The notes: generated by a model not told the origin, from the letters alone. A stretch of 64,000 nt of DNA from a virus (IMGVR_UViG_3300031414_000021:7790-71789); one strand, 5' to 3'; positions 3,205 to 35,998 are shown, counted from the stretch's first letter. Made by a program: numbers and translations.

Positions 3205-4512
3205 TTAGTCCCGAGACTTGGTCTTCTTTTTCTTCTTCTTCTTTTCAGATTTATCTGCTTTGGCGTCTTCAGGCATGGACAAGGTGCTCATCTTGCCTTC
3301 ATTGAGATCTGCCATCAGGGTCATGACCTTGGACTCAATCATGATCTCTGCTGGAATGCTGGTGGTGTTAAACCCAATCTCAGATTCAGCCAGTGCAGTT
3401 TGCAGATAGATCAAACGCACAGGGTTAACGTTGATCTTGTTCTGCTTGGCCATGTTGAGGAACATCTTGAGGCCAGCCGTCTGCCACTTGTTCGTCTCAG
3501 CCATGTGACCGATGATGCCGTGAATAACCCAACGCGCTTTCATCACAATGCCACGCGGGTTGTTTGCCTCACGAATAAACTGGACGACACTGATAAGGTC
3601 CATATCGAGATACGCACCAATCATCTGAACTGCTTTAGCTTCCATTTCGATTTCTGGATCAGCTGAGGCAAGTTCATTGACCAATGCCTTATCAAACTTC
3701 TCACCGCCAACTACAGACGAGTAGATCGTTTGCAACATGCCGATTGCACCACGCATCTGTCCACCAGCATACTCTGCCACTGACTTGATCGCTTCTTCTG
3801 CACGTTCACGCGACTTGTCTTTCTTAGGCATGATGCCTTCTGTTTCAGCAATCTCGGTCAGACGCTTGGCGATAACATCGAGTTTGATTGGCTGAATAGG
3901 AAGGTTGGTAGCACGACTGACGATAGTCGGCTTCATCTTCTCAGGGTTGGTTGTGACAAAGATCCACACAGTGTGCTCTGGCGGTTCTTCTGTTGTCACA
4001 AGGAACTTGGACTCTGCCTGAGGACTCATCAAGTGTGCTTCGTCGAGAATGTACACACGACGTTTGAACATCGGACTGAGTTCAGCACTATCAATGATCT
4101 TCTGGCTGCCGTCTACTTTACCCCAATCGCCACCCATGTCGTAGCTCAGGATATCTGGATGCGCGTCTTTGCCCATGTCAGCCATCTTACAGCTACGGCA
4201 TTTACCACAGGCGGAGAACGTGTCACAGTTGATGTACTTGGCCACAAGCCGTGCAAACGTTGTCTTACCAGAACCATAATGACCAGTAACAAGAATGGTC
4301 GCAGGCACGATACCGCTCTTGGTCCAGCCTCGGAAGATCTTAACGATGTGGTCTTGACCCACGTAATCTTCAATTACGCGTGGACGGTACTTGGCAGCAA
4401 AGTTCACGGTCTTGAGTTCAACTACCTCACCGCCTTTGCTGCTCTTTTTCTTGCTTGACTTCGGCTCGTCATCACTCGCGCCAAAGCTCCGCTGTTTCTT
4501 GTCTTTTGCCAT
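3205..4512 (-). CDS. dnaX: DNA polymerase III gamma/tau (DnaX)-like clamp loader subunit
   Basis: Walker A GHYGSGKTT, Zn motif C..CGKCRSC, ILDEAH Walker B, EEPP..WIFVTT, TIVSR arginine finger; poly-K C-terminal tail. Confidence 0.9.
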   Translation of the reverse strand: MAKDKKQRSFGASDDEPKSSKKKSSKGGEVVELKTVNFAAKYRPRVIEDYVGQDHIVKIFRGWTKSGIVPATILVTGHYGSGKTTFARLVAKYINCDTFSACGKCRSCKMADMGKDAHPDILSYDMGGDWGKVDGSQKIIDSAELSPMFKRRVYILDEAHLMSPQAESKFLVTTEEPPEHTVWIFVTTNPEKMKPTIVSRATNLPIQPIKLDVIAKRLTEIAETEGIMPKKDKSRERAEEAIKSVAEYAGGQMRGAIGMLQTIYSSVVGGEKFDKALVNELASADPEIEMEAKAVQMIGAYLDMDLISVVQFIREANNPRGIVMKARWVIHGIIGHMAETNKWQTAGLKMFLNMAKQNKINVNPVRLIYLQTALAESEIGFNTTSIPAEIMIESKVMTLMADLNEGKMSTLSMPEDAKADKSEKKKKKKKTKSRD

Positions 4513-4568
4513 TTTTGAAAATACCCTTCGTGAGTTTACTCATATTTACAGATTTTCCATGTCCATAG

Positions 4569-4687: not shown

Positions 4688-4912
4688 TCAGGCAACGAAA
4701 GCAAGTCCAGGTTCGAAACGTGGAGTCACTTCTGTGTAATCTTGGTAGGCAGCATCGTTCTGCTGGCGGGCACGGTTCACACGTTCAATCTCACGTTGGA
4801 CGTCAGAGTAACTGCGGATATTGCTGCGTACAGTGCGGGTTTCAAATGTGCCATCGTGGCGAACCAAATCCACGACAACACGATAACAACTTCTGTTCAT
4901 GTTAGTCTCCAT
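4688..4912 (-). CDS. hypothetical protein
   Basis: 74-aa ORF with CTGTAAATA 41 nt upstream. Confidence 0.6.
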   Translation of the reverse strand: METNMNRSCYRVVVDLVRHDGTFETRTVRSNIRSYSDVQREIERVNRARQQNDAAYQDYTEVTPRFEPGLAFVA

Positions 4913-4992
4913 TAATAGGGCCTTTCAGCCCTAGAATTATCTGCTGCTTTATATTTACAGAAAGCAGCCACATGTGGAGGCTAAGACAACTC

Positions 4993-5352
4993 TTATTTTT
5001 TAGCCAGTGGATCAGTGACAATCTGAGGCTGAGGAATCTGGTCTGTTTTAGCACCGAGACGCTCAAGCCCTGATTTAATGTCCTGCACCAGGTCATGCAT
5101 TTGCTGAGCAACGCCAGCCACCGCTGTGGCAGATTGCTCTACCGAAGTCAGGCGGCCATCAAGCCCATCAACAACAGAGCTGAGTCGGTCAGTCTGCTGC
5201 TTAACGGTTGCTTCAAGGTCTTTGCGCGAGTTTTCGAAGTCCTGATAATAACGCTGCGATTCGTTGGGATGGCGTTTAGTCCACCACACACCGAATGCAA
5301 ACATACCAATAGCAACGATCACTGTAACGATTAACCAAGCAAGTGTGGTCAT
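4993..5352 (-). CDS. single-pass membrane protein with coiled-coil tail
   Basis: MTTLAWLIVTVIVAIGMFAFGVWW TM segment, then heptad-like region; GGAG upstream. Confidence 0.7.
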   Translation of the reverse strand: MTTLAWLIVTVIVAIGMFAFGVWWTKRHPNESQRYYQDFENSRKDLEATVKQQTDRLSSVVDGLDGRLTSVEQSATAVAGVAQQMHDLVQDIKSGLERLGAKTDQIPQPQIVTDPLAKK

Positions 5353-5379
5353 AAGGAAATCTCCGAGGATAGTTATTAA

Positions 5380-5812
5380 ACCAGCCAAGGAAATATGACC
5401 AGGGCTGGCGTGGTTCAGCCCCATGCGTTGAGGACTCCAATACACACTCGTAAATGCATATTGGAGTCCACCCAGTGAGCAACGCGAATCAATCAACTGG
5501 GCTTTCTCCCCCTCAGTTTAAGGCGCCTAGAGGGATTGCGGCGCCCGAGAGAGTCTTACACCTTTGTGCGCACGGCTGACGACGGCACAGGTAGCACTGT
5601 TGGCATCAGCGTGCAGCGAGGTTGCTCTGCTCAAAACCAGCATGACGGTGCTGGTCAGAGTGTCCGCCTAACGAGGCAGCTCCAGGTTATGCAGGACACG
5701 ACTCTCACTAATAAGCCATCTAACACCGCTGACCGTGAGAGCATGAATTGGTTGCGATGCGCACAATGCACAAAAAGGAGAAGGGCCAGAGGGATTGCTT
5801 CCAGCCCTTCTC
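5380..5812 (-). ncRNA. candidate structured non-coding RNA or long structured leader (family not recognised)
   Basis: No credible ORF; about 9 stems in 430 nt (e.g. 5432-5442/5459-5469, 5471-5476/5496-5501, 5522-5527/5540-5545, 5636-5642/5649-5655, 5660-5665/5694-5699, 5702-5708/5735-5741); G-U extensions form only on the minus strand. Confidence 0.5.
5772..5812 (-). terminator. terminator-like hairpin
   Basis: GAGAAGGGC/GCCCTTCTC 9-bp stem with T5 on the minus strand, downstream of the HAD gene. Confidence 0.6.
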
Positions 5813-5894
5813 AAACGTGCAGAAGAACACTCCGTGTCCTTCATTTGTTACGCTATTTAATTAGTGAAATTTGCCGAAGTGGCTAAGATTTTTC

Positions 5895-6488
5895 TTAACT
5901 ATTTATGGCACTAAGGTCGCGTTGCATTTGCTCGATGGCGTCAAAGAATTCATCGCGCTCAAAGGTATCAATGCGGTACGGATGTGGGATGTGACTGTTC
6001 CAAGGTTGATTCTGGAGCAATACATTACTAGGCAGGGGTCTGGACTGGTCAAAGATTGGTTTGTCGTCAACAAGGATAAAGTTGTTGTGCCCAAACATCT
6101 GTTGGAGATACACCAACTTGTCTTTGGTGGCTGCGTCATAGGGATCTATAACGTGTAAGCGGCCAATCAAGTTGTGCAGGTTATTCTGCTCCAGACTTCG
6201 GACGGTGTATAAGAATCCACGTTCATTGTAACCACGATGTGTGCAGACATGTACCGTACGGCCAGAAGCACGCAACAGGTCAAGAGTGTTTGCCACAAAC
6301 GGACGCAGTGGTACGTGTAACATAAATTCAGCGCTGGCCAACAGTTCAAGGAAATGAGGTCCAGCGTTAGCTGCTGTGAGGTAATGACCTTGACAATCCA
6401 CGCCACGACTTTTCAGATACTGATCAAAGTATGGGTAGGTCGCAAACGCGGTATCGTCAAGATCAACTACAATGTCTTTTATAAACAT
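5895..6488 (-). CDS. HAD-superfamily 5'(3')-deoxyribonucleotidase-like protein
   Basis: DLDDT motif I, CTHRG motif II, LVDDKP motif IV, QPWN. Confidence 0.7.
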   Translation of the reverse strand: MFIKDIVVDLDDTAFATYPYFDQYLKSRGVDCQGHYLTAANAGPHFLELLASAEFMLHVPLRPFVANTLDLLRASGRTVHVCTHRGYNERGFLYTVRSLEQNNLHNLIGRLHVIDPYDAATKDKLVYLQQMFGHNNFILVDDKPIFDQSRPLPSNVLLQNQPWNSHIPHPYRIDTFERDEFFDAIEQMQRDLSAINS

Positions 6489-6874
6489 TAATGTTCCACG
6501 CTGGGTAGGAGCAAGGGCAGTCCGTTGATCATTGCCAGAGTGAGATTAAATTCGCAGTAAGCACGAACAAAATCATCATGGTTGCCCATAATAGTACACT
6601 CTTCATCCTCACTGATCTCGAAACTGTCACGGCTTATCAGGTCAAGCCCGTAGTTCCGTGACGGTACCATTTCGTGAGGATTGATCATCCACATCTGCCC
6701 TGCTGTTTCAACAATGTGCCCGACGTAATCGGTACGGCCACGTCGCACAAAGCGCAACATGGGACCAATGTTTGACAGTGCTTGGGTCAGTTGCTGTTCG
6801 TTCAGATCAACTGAATGCACTACATCATCGTCGGAGAAATCAAAATCAAAGTCATCATGCTCTACGCTTTGCAT
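6488..6874 (-). CDS. hypothetical protein
   Basis: ORF coupled to its neighbours. Confidence 0.65.
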   Translation of the reverse strand: MQSVEHDDFDFDFSDDDVVHSVDLNEQQLTQALSNIGPMLRFVRRGRTDYVGHIVETAGQMWMINPHEMVPSRNYGLDLISRDSFEISEDEECTIMGNHDDFVRAYCEFNLTLAMINGLPLLLPSVEH

Positions 6875-7461: not shown

Positions 7462-8430
7462 TCACTCGGCGCGTACTTCTTTCAGGCTGTTCTTGATTGC
7501 CTTGCGCAGTGTCTTGCCAACGTCAACACCAGACACATGTCGGGCAAACGTATAGGCAAACAGGCTTGGGGCATTCTTCATTGCAGCCTTTTCAAGATCA
7601 GGACGCCCTTCGGCAACCTCAATCTCTCCCGGCCACAAATCAGCAACTGACGTTCCGTCCTGCTGTGCCATGAGTTCCAACTCTCTGACTGAGATAGAAC
7701 GTTGTCTGGCGATTGATCGGAAGATCAGATCGACAAACGGCAACAGGTCTTCGGACACCACATTCTTAACATCTTTCGCATCACCAGCGTGGAGGAAGTC
7801 TTCAAGCAAACCTGCCAAGACTTCTTTATCCAAACGATGAACATTGCGCAACTTGTTGAACAGGACGAGCCAGCGAACTTTGCGCTTGGAACTTAACAGG
7901 TGAGTCCAAATGCTTTCGCCAATCCCATACAGCAAGCGGTTATAAACATCTTCTCCGACGTGGGTCGAATCGAGGTATACTGTGAGTTCGTCCTGCCACT
8001 CTTCCTTTTTAAAACGTGAACGGAAGGTGTGAGTCTTGCTGCCGCCCTGCTGAACAAAGTTGATAGCCGTCATGCGGCGAATAGCCTCATGCAGGTTATA
8101 CTTGTCAACGATTTTGGGCAGGCGCTTGAGACCAACACGGGCAGCCTTACGAACTTCATCAGGGCGTCCGTACAGATGCATCTTGGGCAGCGTGCTGATA
8201 TCAGGCAGGCTGTGATACGGTCTGACGGTAACGCCAAATGCGCTGGCACCAGGTTCAGGGTCAGCGCCAAGAACGCAGAGCACGTCTACGCTTGGACTAA
8301 ATTTGATTGTCTCTACTTCGCTCTTGTGCATGGTATTTGCAAGGATGCCAACTGTTTTACCAGTGGCCAGTACCAACACGTTTTTGTTACCAGAGCGAAC
8401 CACGAGATAATCATTCTCGTTATGTTTCAT
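7462..8430 (-). CDS. hypothetical protein
   Basis: 322-aa ORF with phage-like codon use; CTGTAAAT 57 nt upstream. Confidence 0.75.
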   Translation of the reverse strand: MKHNENDYLVVRSGNKNVLVLATGKTVGILANTMHKSEVETIKFSPSVDVLCVLGADPEPGASAFGVTVRPYHSLPDISTLPKMHLYGRPDEVRKAARVGLKRLPKIVDKYNLHEAIRRMTAINFVQQGGSKTHTFRSRFKKEEWQDELTVYLDSTHVGEDVYNRLLYGIGESIWTHLLSSKRKVRWLVLFNKLRNVHRLDKEVLAGLLEDFLHAGDAKDVKNVVSEDLLPFVDLIFRSIARQRSISVRELELMAQQDGTSVADLWPGEIEVAEGRPDLEKAAMKNAPSLFAYTFARHVSGVDVGKTLRKAIKNSLKEVRAE

Positions 8431-8462: not shown

Positions 8463-8636
8463 TCAAATTACGACGGTACGAATGGAATTTACAGAAACGC
8501 TCATATCGAACGTGTTGAGACTTTTCTTAATCTTTTGCAACGCCTCTTCCTGATGTGGAAGGAGTTTAACGCGGACGTTCTGCAACGCGGGTTTGGTCGG
8601 ACGACGGCCTGTTGGACTACGCAGATTTTTGTTCAT
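8463..8636 (-). CDS. small basic hypothetical protein (MNKNLRS...)
   Basis: Internal ATG 8636 overlapping the end of the upstream gene. Confidence 0.5.
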   Translation of the reverse strand: MNKNLRSPTGRRPTKPALQNVRVKLLPHQEEALQKIKKSLNTFDMSVSVNSIRTVVI

Positions 8637-10310: not shown

Positions 10311-10829
10311 TCAATCAGGTTTATCGAGAAGACGATCTATTTCCCACTCCATGTAATCGTCAGGGTTCCAACTTGAGGGATCATCAGGATGATAATCATC
10401 AGGATCGTACAGCCCTTCAAGATTTGGAGATACGTCTCTGTGGTAAATGTGCTCGCAGGCAGTAGCACTATTAGATTCGAAATTGGGGATGCAGAAGACA
10501 GGAAGACAAAAGCGTAAAGGAAAATCTTTTACGATAGTCTTTTCAACATCAGCATCATCGTCTGTCCATGGGACGTGGATTTTTTCTTGAGCTTGGACCA
10601 AAGCAAAGTAGCGTTCGAATTTCTCACGGTCTCCGTATTGCTCCCAGCCTAACAACATGCGGTTCAAAAACACATGTTGGCTGATATCGAATTTTTCATA
10701 CTCTTTGGTAATCACTTCAAAACAGCTAACATCAGGGTTCTGAGCAATTCGATACTCAAGGTAGATTTCCATCTTGACGGCGATGCGTAGTCGAGATTTT
10801 ATGCTCAAGCTATAAGGGCTTCGCTTCAT
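10311..10829 (-). CDS. hypothetical protein (AT-rich gene, PDDY repeats near the C-terminus)
   Basis: Coupled to the PolA-like ORF; atypical codon use. Confidence 0.6.
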   Translation of the reverse strand: MKRSPYSLSIKSRLRIAVKMEIYLEYRIAQNPDVSCFEVITKEYEKFDISQHVFLNRMLLGWEQYGDREKFERYFALVQAQEKIHVPWTDDDADVEKTIVKDFPLRFCLPVFCIPNFESNSATACEHIYHRDVSPNLEGLYDPDDYHPDDPSSWNPDDYMEWEIDRLLDKPD

Positions 10830-12427
10830 TATTCGTCACTCATAAAATCTAAGGCATCGGAGAATCGTTTGACAACAAACTTAGCAGTGCCGGAAACAAT
10901 TCCCTCAGGACCGGTCTGCATCAAAGCACCGTCATGCTCCAACGAGAAAACTATTTGAACGTTATCACTCAGGATAGCGTCAAACAGCCTTTTTGATTCT
11001 ATGCCCGAAATCTGATGGCTCATCGTACTTCGGCACAAGTTGCGCTTACCCATTCCAACATGAGTGTTTGGGAGAAATGGGGTATGTGTATCATTGCGTA
11101 ACAGAGGGCCCTCGCGAGTAATTCGAAATTGCTCAACGTACACGGCACTAAGTTTTCGCAGTGCTTGGATAAATGGAATACAGGTGATGTTCCACGTTTC
11201 CAAGAACTGATACACCTCATCTTTGTTTTTGAAATGAGGACGCAGGGCTTTGTAGGTGCTGCTCTTAGGACTCTTGACCAAAGTGCTGACACTAAACAAA
11301 GTGGCATAGAAACAGATTTTGGCCAGCTTTTTAGGCAGGCCAACTCTTTCAGCTATATCATTTACAGAATTGATATCCGCTAGAAATGAACACTCAATGC
11401 CATACTTAGCCAGCTCCTCACGAATGATATTCAACTGGCTGCTTTCCATATCCCAGTTGGTGCCCACAACACTACACCTCTGTTTGAGAATTGCAGGGAA
11501 GCTCTGGAAGCCTCCTCCTTCTTCAAACAGGCGTCCTCCAATTCGAGCCAGCTTGTACGCAGGGTAATATCGAATGACGAGAGGTTTGTCTGACACTATC
11601 TGAATCGGACCGTTGATGATCGCCAGTAGACAGTGAAGCACCTGATGGAACTGACGTTGAGCCTTGTCAGTTTTACGAAAGCTCTTTGTCTCCAGGTATT
11701 CTAAGATAGGGTCGATTGCAATTTCATTAGGCCCCAGCTTCTTCAATACCTTGAGATACAACTGTCTGGCTTTGCGATCTTCATTAGCCCGCAACCGTTC
11801 AAGATCGTGTTTGCGCCTTTTTAAAGGGCGATTAGCATTGACACGTATCTCCTCAAGAATCGTCAGGCCAAAGTTCTCCTGAACAACTTGAACAGGACTG
11901 TAGTAACGGGTCAGCTCCAAAATCTCACGGCTAGACCTAGGTCGTTGTGGATACATCTGGGCGATATGAACGCTTTTGACGCGATACTCACAACTCATGC
12001 CAGGACCATTAGCAGTTTTCTTTTTGTAGCCCTTGCGGTCGATAACACAAGCCACCAGCCACTCCAAGGCACGAGTAAAGTGTTTTGGAGTTCTGTTTAA
12101 CATTTTAGGGCCTACAGGACCCCGTTTAGCATTTTTACAGCCAAAAACCATCGGCAATTCGCGTCTACCGAGTTTTGCGCTGATTGGCACCCAAACTGTG
12201 CCAAATTTCTCAAATCTTTTCTTTTTCGACGGATACAAGGAGCTTTGGAGCACATGCCAGAAAAACAGATTGATTTGGCGTCTGTATTCGTTTTCGAGCT
12301 TGGCTGGACCGTCATACGGACAACGATCAACAACGTTTTCTTTGACCCACTTTAAGGGTTCCAGCTCCTGGTAGGTGGGATTCTTTATCAAGAACGCTTC
12401 GCGCTTCTTGTCTGAGGAAGAAGACAT
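10829..12427 (-). CDS. divergent family-A polymerase-like protein (532 aa)
   Basis: GGRLF, NWDMESSQL (motif A-like), AKICFYATLF (motif B-like) and SLEHDGAL (motif C-like) occur in PolA order; no exonuclease domain; AT-rich. Confidence 0.5.
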   Translation of the reverse strand: MSSSSDKKREAFLIKNPTYQELEPLKWVKENVVDRCPYDGPAKLENEYRRQINLFFWHVLQSSLYPSKKKRFEKFGTVWVPISAKLGRRELPMVFGCKNAKRGPVGPKMLNRTPKHFTRALEWLVACVIDRKGYKKKTANGPGMSCEYRVKSVHIAQMYPQRPRSSREILELTRYYSPVQVVQENFGLTILEEIRVNANRPLKRRKHDLERLRANEDRKARQLYLKVLKKLGPNEIAIDPILEYLETKSFRKTDKAQRQFHQVLHCLLAIINGPIQIVSDKPLVIRYYPAYKLARIGGRLFEEGGGFQSFPAILKQRCSVVGTNWDMESSQLNIIREELAKYGIECSFLADINSVNDIAERVGLPKKLAKICFYATLFSVSTLVKSPKSSTYKALRPHFKNKDEVYQFLETWNITCIPFIQALRKLSAVYVEQFRITREGPLLRNDTHTPFLPNTHVGMGKRNLCRSTMSHQISGIESKRLFDAILSDNVQIVFSLEHDGALMQTGPEGIVSGTAKFVVKRFSDALDFMSDE

Positions 12428-12875
12428 TCGAATCTCCTGAATGGAACTTCTTTTTTACGTTTTCTTGTTTTATCTTTACAGTTTTAGCTACGCTATCTCG
12501 AAGCACATACAAACCTCAGCTGGCAGGCAGGAGAGGAGGACAGGCAGGCAGGAAGGGCAGGGCACAGATAAGCACAAGCTACGCTTAATAGATACAAATA
12601 CAAGAAGGCTTTAGGTGGTCTCCATTTTATATTTGATGATTTTGCGCCACAGCTCACTGCTCAACAGATCCCACTGTCCAGGGCGTTTAACCCTGCTCCA
12701 GGGCGATCTCCACCCATCTGTCAAATGCTCCCTAGCGGATGTAAATTTTTCGCTTAAATCTAGCCAAAACTGTCCATTTTCTGACCAAAGGCGCCTAAGC
12801 TCATGTTTCAGCTCTGAAAATCCCGATTAAAACAGGATTTTCAGACGAATCTTAGGGCCTTTGAAGTGGCCGATA
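12428..12875. other. non-coding block with strong purine skew, short repeats and an inverted repeat (origin-like)
   Basis: GGCAG repeats 12522-12561; AGCTACGCT x2; TCCAGGGCG x2; 10-bp IR CTGAAAATCC/GGATTTTCAG at 12814-12844. Confidence 0.4.
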
Positions 12876-14683: not shown

Positions 14684-14742
14684 ATCGTTCTCCTCTAGTG
14701 TCTAAAATTAGTGATCTTCTCATTTATCAATCTTCCTAGAGA

Positions 14743-14770
14743 TTCTTATAAACTTTATAATATATAAGAA
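14743..14770 (+). promoter_or_regulatory. inverted repeat enclosing a TATAAT -10 box (candidate RHH operator or left-end hairpin)
   Basis: TTCTTATA-N12-TATAAGAA with TATAAT at 14756-14761. Confidence 0.5.
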
Positions 14771-14788
14771 GACATGAGGAGAATCCCA

Positions 14789-14938
14789 ATGAGTAAAAAA
14801 CCAAGAGCATATAGCATTAGCGACGATGTGTTTAATGCAGTGCGCAAACGCGCCTTGGAAGAGAGCACTAAGAAGGGTAAACGTGTGTCGGAATCGGAGA
14901 TTGTCGAGAAGACACTGAGAAAGGCATTTGTACGATGA
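14789..14938 (+). CDS. 49-aa ribbon-helix-helix-like DNA-binding protein
   Basis: Not in the ORF track. MSKKPRAYSISDDVFNAVRKRALEES...VSESEIVEKTLRKAF; RBS GAGGAG; ATGA overlap with tnpB. Confidence 0.75.
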   Translation: MSKKPRAYSISDDVFNAVRKRALEESTKKGKRVSESEIVEKTLRKAFVR

Positions 14939-16092
14939 TCGGTTTCGTAGGACTTAAAGTCCGACTATATCCAACAGAGGTCCAGAGAAGTCTTATTGAA
15001 AAGACCTTTGGCTGTTGTCGAAAAGTTGCTAATGCTATGCTGGCAAAAAGAATTGAAGTGTGGACAGCGGAGCAGAGGACAATCGCACGAAACAAATTTA
15101 TCAATGCTCTGCCTAACTTGAAGAAAAAGTTTCCATGGCTGAGTGAGGTTGATAGTCAAGCATTACAGCAGGCTATCATCGACATGGATAAAGCCTTTGT
15201 CGCTTTCTTTGACAAGAAAAGTCACTTCCCTCAATTTAAATCCAAGCATGGGCCACAAGCGTTCAGATCAACTCAGCAGAATAGAGTTATGGACGATAGC
15301 CACATAAAAATAGGCAAGACTGGTGTTGTGCGTTGTCGAGGTATGAACGGCAGATACTCTGGTGAGAAAATAAGAAATGTTACTGTGAGTAGAGATTCCT
15401 GTGGACATTATTATGCCTCAGTCCTCATAGAGAAAGATAGAGTCGTGTACGATCATTGCCATGAGTTTATAGCCTGTGGCGTTGATGTGGGTATAGCCAA
15501 ACCTTTAACAATAGGGTGGGAAGACAACGACAATAAACCCAAGTACAGACACATAGGTAATCTTTTTACTAACAGGCTTGCTGTTAAAGAACAGAAACGG
15601 CTTAAATACCAGAAACAACTATCTCGAAAGAAAGTCGGCTCGAATGGATTCAAGCGTGCCAAGGTTAAGCTTGCCAAAGCCTTTGCTTCTGAAAGAAATT
15701 TACGGGACGACTGGCGCAAAAAGACCGCGTTATTTCTGTGCCGTAAGTTTACTCAGATCAATTTTGAAAAACTCAACCTAAGGCGTATGCTTTCAACAAA
15801 GACAGTAGAAGCGGAAAGGATGAAGCAGCATAAAACAAAACTCAATCGAGATTTATCCAGATTGGGATTTGCAGACCTGATCGCATTCTGTGAACAAAAA
15901 GCAGTTCAGTTTGGCGTGACCATTCAGTTAGTAGATCCTAGAAATACGTCACGCCAATGTAGTTGCTGTGGGCATACTGAGAAAGCCAATCGTATATCCC
16001 AAAGCCGTTTCAAGTGCGTTTCTTGCGGGTTTGAGGCAAACGCCGATGCGAATGCGAGCTGGAACATTCTTCGTCGTCCTGCTTTTGGATAA
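14935..16092 (+). CDS. tnpB: RNA-guided endonuclease TnpB (IS200/IS605 OrfB)
   Basis: N-terminal KVRLYPTEVQ; RuvC motifs GVDVG, FEKL and NADANA..NI; Zn ribbon CSCCG..CVSCG. Confidence 0.92.
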   Translation: MIGFVGLKVRLYPTEVQRSLIEKTFGCCRKVANAMLAKRIEVWTAEQRTIARNKFINALPNLKKKFPWLSEVDSQALQQAIIDMDKAFVAFFDKKSHFPQFKSKHGPQAFRSTQQNRVMDDSHIKIGKTGVVRCRGMNGRYSGEKIRNVTVSRDSCGHYYASVLIEKDRVVYDHCHEFIACGVDVGIAKPLTIGWEDNDNKPKYRHIGNLFTNRLAVKEQKRLKYQKQLSRKKVGSNGFKRAKVKLAKAFASERNLRDDWRKKTALFLCRKFTQINFEKLNLRRMLSTKTVEAERMKQHKTKLNRDLSRLGFADLIAFCEQKAVQFGVTIQLVDPRNTSRQCSCCGHTEKANRISQSRFKCVSCGFEANADANASWNILRRPAFG

Positions 16093-16186
16093 GACGTTTT
16101 TGCTCTTGTTCGTGTTCAAACTCCAGGTCTGTTTTTTCACGCACCTCTTTTATTTCTGCGTCAGAAAGACTTATTAAAATCTGCAT
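16010..16186 (-). CDS. ISLS-motif charged protein (MQILISLS); 3' end overlaps tnpB convergently
   Basis: ATG 16186 after GAGG; an in-frame upstream ATG at 16321 also has GAGGAG. Confidence 0.6.
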   Translation of the reverse strand: MQILISLSDAEIKEVREKTDLEFEHEQEQKRLIQKQDDEECSSSHSHRRLPQTRKKRT

Positions 16187-26815: not shown

Positions 26816-27553
26816 ATGAGCAACGCGAAGTTTCTTGTTTCCGATCTGCCTCGTACTGCCGACAACTTATTCAGTCTTGAGTTTTTCGTCCGCAATATTA
26901 ATCAGATTCAAGATGATAAAATGCTTTTCCATAAGCAGCCCGGTCGTTGGGACAGCTTGAATGAAGCCACGACAACAACCGACTGGCACTACTTGATTCA
27001 AACGCGCTTAGCAACGTTGAAGCACTTAGTCACGTTGCCTCAGCCCACTGCTTTCCGTGATAGCTTTCGTACGGTTGATAGCATTTGGCGTGAGATTCAT
27101 GATGCATACTGCGAAGAATATCCAGACTGCGTAGATGCGTTGCTTGCGATGGTACCAACGCCTCGTAAGGCTCCTGAGTTTGAGCGCGTCGAATACTCTG
27201 CGGAGAACTATCGCGAGGTGTACTCGGCTCAGTTCATGGAAGTTCAAAAGCAGATTGATGCCTACTGGCAGATGTGCGAACTTGAATATTTCCTGCGGCG
27301 TGACGAGAACGGGATACTTCCAGAGCCCCGTGCCGACAGTGATTATTTCTGGGATCACATGTGGTCCAGCGTTGAGGAACTCAGTTACAGACTGATGGAC
27401 GCTATGATCCATACACGCATTAGCGGCGGCACTAACGATGTGCTACAGCGCTACGGCCGTGAAGTTTCCATGCGGCATATCACTGATATGTGGCAGCACC
27501 AACAGAGTTATAGTGCTCATCGTGTTTGGCTGCATCTGGGGAAATCAAAATGA
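26816..27553 (+). CDS. hypothetical protein (paralog of 27550-28311)
   Basis: ORF track; shared motifs. Confidence 0.7.
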   Translation: MSNAKFLVSDLPRTADNLFSLEFFVRNINQIQDDKMLFHKQPGRWDSLNEATTTTDWHYLIQTRLATLKHLVTLPQPTAFRDSFRTVDSIWREIHDAYCEEYPDCVDALLAMVPTPRKAPEFERVEYSAENYREVYSAQFMEVQKQIDAYWQMCELEYFLRRDENGILPEPRADSDYFWDHMWSSVEELSYRLMDAMIHTRISGGTNDVLQRYGREVSMRHITDMWQHQQSYSAHRVWLHLGKSK

Positions 27554-29689: not shown

Positions 29690-29739
29690 AACTGTAAATA
29701 TGCTGTAACGAAAAGCACATCGCAGAAGGCATCTGTCGT

Positions 29740-35203: not shown

Positions 35204-35950
35204 ATGAACGTAATCCAAGTCAAATCAAATGAAGTATTCGAAGGCATGTTACACGGCTACATGCACAAAGGCCTCAACGATGCACAACAGGATCAGCGCA
35301 ATAACCACACGCCGCCTGATGTGATTTATATCAGTACCAGTGATCGCGCCGCTGACTTTGAAGTGCGTGGCATCTTGCGTAAGAGCACGATACCAGACAA
35401 CTTTATCGTGTCCGGCTATTCGAGTTTGCAGGTGCGTGTGCGCGGTCGTTCGCTGAATGATACCTCAGTGTTTATCTCGCCTGAATGTTTGCACGTTGAC
35501 CGTGACTTGCTTACTGGTAGTCTTGCCGAGCTTATTGAGCACCGTACTGCCCACAAGTGGGTTGAAGTATCCACGATGATCGTTCACGGTCCGAGCAGTC
35601 ACTGTATGCCTGAAGGCCTGCAGGAGCGTTTGTATCAGAACTATCTCGGACGTAATCCAATGTTCCATCAGGGCATTGTGGACATGCGTAGTAACACAAC
35701 ACCAGAACAGTTTGCGGAGTTGGTGGCGGAAACTGCCACATTAAAATCACCGCAGCAAAAACGCATTCGCGCACCTCTGTATTTTGGTGATGAGTTTATG
35801 TCACTTGACATGAAGCAGTTCTATAAGGACCTGCTTGTGTTGCACCCGCGTATGCCTGCAGGCGATAGTCTTGTGTTTAGTCCTGCGCTGTTGTTCCGTG
35901 TTTACTCTGCGGCAATCTCCTATCTGCGTCTGCCGATAACAACACTGTAA
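35204..35950 (+). CDS. hypothetical protein
   Basis: AGGAG RBS. Confidence 0.7.
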   Translation: MNVIQVKSNEVFEGMLHGYMHKGLNDAQQDQRNNHTPPDVIYISTSDRAADFEVRGILRKSTIPDNFIVSGYSSLQVRVRGRSLNDTSVFISPECLHVDRDLLTGSLAELIEHRTAHKWVEVSTMIVHGPSSHCMPEGLQERLYQNYLGRNPMFHQGIVDMRSNTTPEQFAELVAETATLKSPQQKRIRAPLYFGDEFMSLDMKQFYKDLLVLHPRMPAGDSLVFSPALLFRVYSAAISYLRLPITTL

Positions 35951-35998
35951 ATATAAGAGGCGATCTTCGGGTCGCCTTTTTACTTTCAAGGACTAGAC

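Follow-up and report, generated by a model that had tools for sequence, protein, structure and literature searches.

Comparative sequence analysis indicates that a 542-nucleotide (nt) gap between two minus-strand phage genes encodes a structured non-coding RNA that belongs to a previously undescribed family. The gap (positions 5353-5894) is part of a 64,000-nt stretch of viral DNA (IMGVR_UViG_3300031414_000021:7790-71789), which we call the window and whose full-length numbering is used throughout. The window comes from an Erwinia jumbo phage near pEa_SNUABM_5 (Rivsvirus), represented by a fragment of 71.8 kb that is 27% complete, and a covariance model finds one copy of the RNA in this contig. 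As judged from sequence, members of the family occur as a single copy located directly 3' of a gene for a HAD-like phosphatase and 5' of the clamp-loader module, within the replication module of a clade of Enterobacterales jumbo phages (of Erwinia, Dickeya, and Yersinia). All RNA elements are read in the 5'-to-3' direction of the minus strand. Searches of the literature did not turn up any account of this RNA.

An earlier note on this DNA had proposed that a gap free of open reading frames (ORFs), with about nine stems, encodes a densely structured RNA of an uncatalogued kind. This description agrees with our findings: the gap has no conserved ORF, the stems are present in the minimum free energy (MFE) fold, the base pairs covary, and comparison with Rfam gave a null result. 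The interpretation offered with that description is partly supported.

Evidence for a conserved RNA structure

We use group W for the window's lineage (Rivsvirus and Yoloswag), group B for Alexandra-type phages, and JA for the Salmondvirus phages JA29 and JA11. Among 17 Alexandra-type sequences, a model of 76 base pairs arranged in 11 helices is paired in 95.4% of alignment cells, compared with 31-46% when the 3' partners are slid out of register. Both nucleotides of the pair have changed in 23 of the 76 pairs, compared with 3-7 in the slid controls, and none of 500 shuffles reaches the observed pairing, compensatory counts, or covariation score. The same picture emerges when the 3' domain is analyzed alone, and 22 compensatory pairs are present among three sequences of the window's lineage. 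Covariation in homologs, which the earlier note had put forward as a test of its candidate, is thus strong.

A covariance model (R1) was built exclusively from the 3' domains of Alexandra-type sequences, leaving out the window's lineage. R1 nevertheless matches the window at 5431-5561(-) over all 125 of its positions, with a score of 51.5 bits and an E-value of 3e-11. Scores are 53-58 bits for pEa_SNUABM_5 and Yoloswag, 32-35 bits for JA-type sequences, and 30 bits for Yersinia phage fHe-Yen9-02. Each of these matches is syntenic and lies on the sense strand; R1 matches to the opposite strand involve only the palindromic H6 hairpin.

Two measures point to the strand that would be transcribed into the predicted RNA. 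The MFE of the minus strand is -214.4 kcal/mol (z -6.10 relative to shuffles), whereas the plus strand reaches -198.7 kcal/mol (z -4.82). In addition, the paired cells of the relatives' alignment include 117 G-U pairs versus 10 A-C combinations, which indicates that the RNA is encoded on the strand of the flanking genes. A minus-strand RNA had already been favored on the basis of an 11-bp perfect stem (5432-5442/5459-5469) said to lengthen through G-U pairs; the stem is present and reaches 17 pairs on that strand.

A protein-coding gene or small ORF was considered as an explanation for this conservation and is ruled out. Relatives have no ORF in common by position or strand, and even closely related phages disagree in the strand, location, and size of ORFs of at least 25 codons. 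The three codon phases contain similar shares of variable columns (38/75, 35/74, and 40/79), so that no three-nucleotide periodicity is seen, and the gap in relatives often contains indels of 1, 2, or 7 nt. Some records carry annotated ORFs over the RNA, and these disagree with one another: that of pEa_SNUABM_5 (pEaSNUABM5_00214, 2752-2877 of L001) is encoded on the opposite strand, the one in Yoloswag differs from it (YOLOSWAG_203, 2630-2794 of L002), and that of fHe-Yen9-02 (fHeYen902_106c, 3271-3477 of L074) lies inside the core described below. Because strand and position differ between records, these small ORFs are most likely spurious calls, and several annotated 'hypothetical proteins' of these phages have most likely been mis-called over an RNA gene.

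The core and its pseudoknot

The universal core of the RNA comprises about 125 nt (5431-5561) and includes a GUAAG(AC) junction, hairpin S1, an H-type pseudoknot, a GGGGAG segment, and helices H5 and H6 (Table 1). Upstream of it are helices that vary between lineages: H2, H3, in whose loop GCUACCUG is invariant, and, in the window's lineage, two additional hairpins. The whole RNA is predicted to be about 250-450 nt in length. Members of the family were recognized by the GUAAG junction, S1 with a pseudoknot ending in GGGGAG, H5, H6 with its ACUCCAA/UUGGAGU arms, and a position 3' of the HAD-like gene, all of which are found in the window.

The pseudoknot joins the loop of S1 to a downstream segment, and eight versions of it were identified: UCCCUC/GAGGGG (the window), CCGUGC/GCACGG, CCGUGU/ACACGG, CCUGCAC/GUGCAGG, CCGCAC/GUGCGG, CCCGC/GCGGG, CCCAC/GUGGG, and CCUCU/AGAGG. 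The cognate combinations of loop and partner sum to 138, compared with 100.9 +/- 7.9 when partners are permuted, and only 3 of 40,320 permutations score as high. Within group B, 4 of the 6 pairs have changed on both sides. The window's lineage and JA can form a mutually exclusive alternative, CUCUCUC with GGGGGAG, which is the pairing chosen by a nested MFE fold. This alternative is not present in Alexandra-type sequences.

The distal part of the core is formed by H5 and H6. The first seven pairs of H6 never vary, whereas covariation in distant lineages affects pairs 7-9 and the distal stem, with compensatory changes of pairs 7 and 9 in JA and of pair 9 in fHe-Yen9-02. The spacing and sequence between the H6 arms also vary while pairing is kept.

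The same 11-nt loop word had been noticed at 5529-5539 and 5788-5798. There are indeed two exact copies and none elsewhere in the 64 kb, but they belong to separate elements: the copy at 5788-5798 is the loop of a terminator, and that at 5529-5539 provides a strand of the pseudoknot. Their identity is confined to the window's lineage and, in part, fHe-Yen9-02. We infer that the two loops could compete for one GAGGGGG partner. The further suggestion that such UCCC loops are seeds for targeting Shine-Dalgarno (SD) sequences fits poorly with the finding that loop 5529-5539 pairs with the RNA's own GAGGGG at 5509-5514. Being a strand of the conserved pseudoknot, this loop can at most be called a putative free anti-SD seed.

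Distribution of the family

A blastn search with the window's gap recovered pEa_SNUABM_5 (91.6% identity) and Yoloswag (76%), and in the latter the flanking genes go unaligned. The syntenic gap of Alexandra has sequence blocks in common with that of the window. When the Alexandra gap was used as the query, 46 phage records were found, all of which are without annotation at this site and which include Alexandravirus, Sasquatchvirus (Y3), Snuvirus, and Dickeya phage AD1. The RNA is located at the same locus in 46 of these 46 records.

A tblastn search with the HAD-like protein identified homologs in 136 jumbo-phage records, some of which are annotated as HAD-like or deoxyribonucleotidase. This trail led to Yersinia phage fHe-Yen9-02 and to Dickeya phages JA29 and JA11, which have the same gene order and the same RNA. 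In Serratia phage KpHz_2, the HAD homolog is present, its locus is densely coding, and the RNA was not found there. The HAD-like protein of the window is 34% identical to that of Alexandra and 60% identical to that of Yoloswag. By sequence comparison, the RNA is better conserved than its neighboring proteins across at least seven genera of jumbo phages whose hosts are plant and animal Enterobacterales.

Four metagenomic contigs of IMG/VR (L054, L055, L070, and L085) also carry the RNA. A scan for the inverted repeat ACTCCAATA...TATTGGAGT returned 51 loci, most of them chance or unrelated, and nhmmer identified L054, L055, and L070 as members (L055 and L070 with equal scores). A looser three-block pattern applied to IMG/VR and metagenomes likewise gave mostly chance matches, and among the matches listed R1 confirms only L085, L095, and L106. 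An exact 18-mer scan of IMG/VR gave a single chance match within a coding region, and the signature typical of groups W and B was not found in 185,579 prokaryote genomes.

The loose pattern also picked up a near-identical element in several unrelated contigs of IMG/VR and metagenomes (L078, L086, L088, and L110/L141), which consists of GGGGGGUAAGGUAUAUAUACCCCCC, then GGGGGGGAG, then ACUCCAAAA...UUUGGAGU. This GGGGGGUAAGGUAUAUAUACCCCCC-type element is not a member of the family according to the covariance model.

Comparison with catalogued RNAs

None of the 4227 models of Rfam 15, which include riboswitches, ribozymes, RNase P, 6S, CsrB/RsmB, GOLLD, ROOL, and HEARO, reaches its gathering threshold in the window. 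The best score in the region, 22.3 bits against a gathering threshold of 40, belongs to a trypanosomatid snoRNA (E 0.19). Six other family members searched with permissive E-values gave nothing in the RNA region. ARAGORN finds no tRNA or tmRNA genes in the 64 kb, and no conserved CCA end follows H6. These searches bear out the earlier failure to match the tract to tmRNA, tRNA, or a known family.

Several specific identities were considered and dropped. Resemblances to the glmS ribozyme, T-box, and pistol RNAs were discounted, since the words in question differ between lineages and no Rfam match exists. A sponge for CsrA/RsmA is unlikely because GGA is not enriched (about 9 occurrences, counted by eye, in 542 nt versus about 8 expected), and there is no match to CsrB or Rsm RNAs. 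A riboswitch or cis-leader class was not assigned either, as the downstream gene is inconstant and the putative expression platform is found only in Rivsvirus.

Elements outside the core

The AT-rich box near the HAD-like gene is the same in the window as in Yoloswag, despite only 60% identity of the adjacent protein. Groups B and JA retain the CTAATT core of the box irrespective of reading frame. The box is unique in each genome and is not a recurring promoter motif.

Hairpin hp1 changes its stem in a compensatory manner between lineages, whereas its GGAGU loop is invariant in 22 of 22 aligned sequences. This loop motif recurs in fHe-Yen9-02, as read from the sequence, and JA lacks hp1.

The element at 5771-5812 has the sequence characteristics of an intrinsic terminator and is predicted to be the rho-independent terminator of the upstream gene. 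It is located 83 nt past the stop codon and exhibits five compensatory pairs among three sequences. Its hairpin (5778-5812) was missed by a consensus scan because the loop exceeds 8 nt. Every sequence of group B, as well as fHe-Yen9-02, has a counterpart consisting of a hairpin followed by 6-12 U nucleotides, and the stem reaches 16 bp in Alexandra-type phages. The poly-T tract after this terminator ranges from 6 to 12 T among group B phages that are otherwise close.

The two extension hairpins represent an insertion relative to group B, and a GGCU(U/A)AUUAGUG(A/G)G hairpin is common to the window and fHe-Yen9-02. In phage pEp_SNUABM_52 (L008, about 570-590), the H2 loop word GUAACACCGC has undergone a 10-nt tandem duplication. 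For H3, the corresponding helices 6 and 7 of group B have changed on both sides in 9 of 14 pairs. Groups W and B have an invariant GCUACC sequence, which can also be read in the fHe-Yen9-02 sequence. Loop words similar to ACCGUCAU and to CGCGUU appear to have swapped hairpins between lineages, which would suit recognition sites better than structural filler.

Neighboring genes and transcription context

The gene that follows the RNA varies by lineage and codes for a 65-aa protein, a membrane protein, or a clamp loader. The 119-aa membrane-protein gene of the window's lineage is not found between the RNA and the next promoter in group B, JA, or fHe-Yen9-02. Its reading frame is open upstream to a TTG at 5496 (4993-5496, -, 167 aa) and would then cross H5 and H6. 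Annotation of the closest relative does not include the 167-aa extension, and a strong GGAG ribosome-binding site (RBS) precedes the ATG at 5352. A conserved protein of 65-74 aa is encoded after the RNA locus in most lineages, with 35-46% identity and its own CTGTAAA motif; copies are located at 4688-4912(-) in the window, 7925-8122(-) in L006, and 3543-3740(+) in L074.

The CTGTAAA motif, usually in the form CTGTAAATA with an A-rich region before it, occurs 20 times in the window compared with 8.1 expected. Its sites are always on the coding strand, 35-80 nt ahead of start codons, and often just past a terminator, and the same is true of Alexandra. CTGTAAA(T)A is probably the promoter motif of this phage group, and it recurs in Alexandra, JA29, and fHe-Yen9-02. 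Group B and fHe-Yen9-02 have the motif between the RNA and the next gene. In JA, the RNA starts at the stop codon of the HAD-like gene with no terminator between them, and it is followed directly by a strong terminator, then by CTGTAAAT and the clamp loader gene. The arrangement in the window's lineage points to an insertion that placed the membrane-protein gene between the RNA and the predicted CTGTAAA promoter at 4954-4960. Neither the window nor Alexandra has the motif upstream of the RNA, and a sigma-70 promoter scan of 4900-6600 gave no candidates.

Table 1. Features of the RNA locus and related sites in the window, with the basis for each assignment
Feature	Position	Strand	Basis or comment
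HAD-like phosphatase / 5'(3')-deoxyribonucleotidase-like gene, 197 aa	5895-6488	-	ORF list; RNA always directly 3'
AT-rich box CACTAATTAAATAG	5853-5866	-	CTAATT core in all lineages; candidate promoter -10 or 5' leader
Hairpin hp1, GGAGU loop	5822-5842	-	MFE fold; between stop codon and terminator
Predicted intrinsic terminator of HAD-like gene	5771-5812	-	13-bp hairpin 5778-5812 (GCAAUCCCUCU in loop), then CUUUUUG 5771-5777
Extension hairpins	5701-5742 and 5660-5699	-	Window's lineage, compensatory pairs; first also in fHe-Yen9-02
Helix H2, loop CACCGUCAUG	5637-5654	-	CCAGC/GCUGG in window, UCCGC/GCGGA in Yoloswag; homologous helix covaries in group B
Long helix H3, terminal loop with invariant GCUACCUG	5560-5622	-	MFE fold; lineage comparison
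Junction motif GUAAGAC	5553-5559	-	Alignments; GUAAG invariant in family
Hairpin S1, GGCGCC/GGCGCC	5522-5545	-	MFE fold; covaries (group B); loop is second copy of GCAAUCCCUCU
Pseudoknot 5' strand UCCCUC, in S1 loop	5530-5535	-	
Pseudoknot 3' strand GAGGGG	5509-5514	-	Overlaps family-invariant GGGGAG 5506-5511
Helix H5, loop UUCGCGUUGCU	5470-5502	-	MFE fold and lineage comparison; 5/12 pairs changed on both sides in group B
Helix H6, containing 11-bp perfect stem	5432-5469	-	ACUCCAA/UUGGAGU invariant family-wide; distal part covaries
Terminator-like hairpin, poor U-tract	5401-5422	-	Terminator scan hit at 5423-5400; Rivsvirus only (kept in pEa_SNUABM_5, not in Yoloswag)
Membrane / coiled-coil protein gene, 119 aa	4993-5352	-	Downstream of RNA; homolog in Yoloswag
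CTGTAAA motif ahead of 74-aa gene	4954-4960	-	Enrichment and placement
74-aa gene	4688-4912	-	Homolog of gene after RNA in Alexandra and fHe-Yen9-02
Clamp loader gene	3205-4512	-	
CTGTAAA sites (examples)	4954-4960(-), 4545-4551(-), 8488-8494(-), 12475-12481(-), 29692-29698(+), 35945-35951(+)		Motif count
H2-loop complement	10926-10937	-	Inside polA-like gene 10829-12427
H5-loop complement	26818-26829	+	G of AUG to codon 5 of 245-aa gene 26816-27553; kept in pEa_SNUABM_5

Possible functions of the RNA

We estimate a probability of roughly 0.5 that the RNA would be a stand-alone molecule acting through its three-dimensional fold. Because the next gene differs by lineage, the conserved syntenic RNA does not appear to be a leader of that gene. 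Moreover, several elements are invariant beyond what pairing needs, which suggests that they are bound by a partner. The RNA would most likely be the RNA part of, or a decoy for, a putative protein or ribosomal partner. Such a partner would read the H6 duplex, the GGGGAG segment exposed between the pseudoknot and H5, GUAAGAC, and loop motifs including GCUACCUG. For example, the fold might capture a host factor, such as the ribosome or 30S subunit via GGGGAG, RNA polymerase, or an RNA-binding global regulator. Another example would be a scaffold for a phage protein that is bound through the invariant H6 duplex. The RNA itself would arise by read-through of the leaky upstream terminator or from an unrecognized promoter near the CTAATT box. 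We tentatively propose that the RNA is a subunit or decoy of a novel ribonucleoprotein (RNP) in replication-phase gene expression, and thus might represent a new functional class and not a cis signal.

Several points weigh against this proposal. The core is preceded by no recognizable promoter class, and the RNA is located right behind an intrinsic terminator in three lineages and right behind the HAD-like stop codon in JA, so it may instead be an operon 3'-untranslated region (UTR) or an intercistronic cis element. The 5' and 3' ends and the expression of the RNA are predicted from sequence, and its partner protein is putative. The main rival is accordingly a cis-acting element of the unit that runs from the peptidase and HAD genes to the clamp loader, in which a 3'-UTR or intercistronic module would serve mRNA stability, processing, or antitermination of the put type, the last by modifying RNA polymerase such that it passes the terminators in front of the replication genes. 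This possibility, of which we are doubtful but which we take seriously, gains from the constant attachment of the RNA to the 3' end of the HAD-like gene, from the lack of an intervening terminator in JA, and from the terminators that follow the RNA within 50-900 nt, in addition to the missing promoter. Yet a strong terminator (a stem of 13-16 bp followed by 5-12 U nucleotides) parts the RNA from the upstream gene in three lineages, such that most upstream transcripts would exclude it. Furthermore, a structure of about 125-350 nt with a pseudoknot and invariant loops exceeds the needs of known stabilizers and put RNAs, and the next genes have their own CTGTAAA promoter motif.

A riboswitch or protein-responsive leader that controls the next gene (here the 119-aa membrane protein) through alternative 3' hairpins seems unlikely. 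The idea draws on the RNA of the window and pEa_SNUABM_5, which continues into the membrane-protein gene without an intervening CTGTAAA motif, leaving a leader role possible in the window's lineage and counting to that extent against a stand-alone RNA. It also draws on a hairpin resembling a terminator, which is located about 30 nt ahead of the RBS and has a competing partner downstream. The earlier note had described this switch as segment 5402-5408 pairing with either 5381-5386 or 5416-5421. The complementary segments exist in the window and in its 92%-identical relative pEa_SNUABM_5, but they are missing in Yoloswag despite the same gene order, and for this reason the switch lacks comparative support. 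In addition, the downstream gene is not conserved across the family, no riboswitch class is matched in Rfam, and a promoter motif (in group B, JA, and fHe-Yen9-02) or, in JA, also a terminator separates the RNA from the next gene. An inconstant next gene and insulation in most lineages argue against the regulatory leader that had been suggested.

The remaining explanations invoke base pairing, DNA, or a transposon-encoded protein. Invariant loops might act as multiple seeds that pair with phage or host mRNAs, for instance the H5 loop with the start of gene 26816-27553. Two perfect 12-nt loop complements are present on mRNA-sense strands (Table 1), where about 0.07 would be expected for the nine 12-mers tested, and the C/U-rich loops resemble anti-SD seeds. 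However, gene 26816-27553 is found only in Rivsvirus, yet the H5 loop is conserved in Yoloswag too; a corresponding test of group B found sites within coding regions only, and no more of them than chance would give; and one of the twin UCCCUCU loops is taken by the pseudoknot. We therefore consider a base-pairing regulator improbable, about as much so as a leader. An element that functions as DNA, either a replication origin or an operator formed by the ACTCCAATA/TATTGGAGT inverted repeat, would explain the location in a replication module and the invariant H6 arms, which are what a protein-binding palindrome would have. It is nevertheless very unlikely, because the excess of G-U over A-C is meaningful only for one RNA strand and because eleven helices covary and a pseudoknot is formed. 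The spacing and sequence between the H6 arms change while pairing is kept, and no direct repeats or AT-rich unwinding element were noticed by eye, no repeat scan having been run. Finally, we see almost no chance that the RNA is the omega RNA, as guide or scaffold, of the TnpB encoded at 14700-16186. A structured, pseudoknotted RNA and a tnpB gene do occur in the same window, as the suggestion of a TnpB scaffold had assumed, but they are 9 kb apart, a distance at odds with omega RNAs, which overlap the 3' end of tnpB or adjoin it. The RNA also keeps its fixed syntenic site in all 46 matching records, and no tnpB gene adjoins those relatives' loci that were examined.

Relationship to known systems

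Large RNAs with complex folds and strong covariation are rare, and they have repeatedly proved to be ribozymes, riboswitches, or RNP cores. The RNA described here is missing from RNA catalogues and from the bacterial genomes scanned, and it is placed inside a replication module. With a 125-nt core and with cultured phages and hosts, it offers a compact entry to RNA-based functions of jumbo phages.

Like the omega RNAs of TnpB (at the right ends of IS200/IS605 elements), it is a pseudoknotted non-coding RNA from a genome that encodes TnpB, but it is not beside tnpB and lacks both a transposon end and a guide segment. It is also similar to HK022 put and other antitermination RNAs in being a structured phage RNA that is part of a transcription unit and precedes terminators as well as essential genes of the early or middle class. 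The put RNA, compared here by description, is about 70 nt and forms two simple stem-loops with no pseudoknot. Unlike put, the RNA is located downstream of a terminator, and the genes that follow it have their own promoter motif. As in regulators of the Staphylococcus aureus RNAIII type, two hairpins of the window's lineage display a C/U-rich loop, AAUCCCUCU, that is complementary to purine-rich, SD-like sequences. Here, one AAUCCCUCU loop pairs in cis with GAGGGG and the other is a terminator loop. The motif is missing from the loops of group B and JA and is thus not a feature of the family.

The closest known RNAs appear to be GOLLD (RF01998) and ROOL (RF03087), large orphan RNAs of phages and prophages, to which the resemblance would be one of kind and not of homology. 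Searches of Rfam by E-value with seven family members gave no sequence or structure match to either. Compared with these RNAs, the new family is smaller, with its core of about 125 nt and a total of 250-450 nt, and it is located beside replication genes whereas GOLLD and ROOL are beside tRNA clusters. It is also confined to lytic Enterobacterales jumbo phages and was not found in bacterial genomes by the scan for the signature of groups W and B. What the new RNA has in common with GOLLD and ROOL is that all are phage-borne orphans of several hundred nucleotides, with multiple helices, pseudoknots backed by covariation, and no fixed downstream gene.

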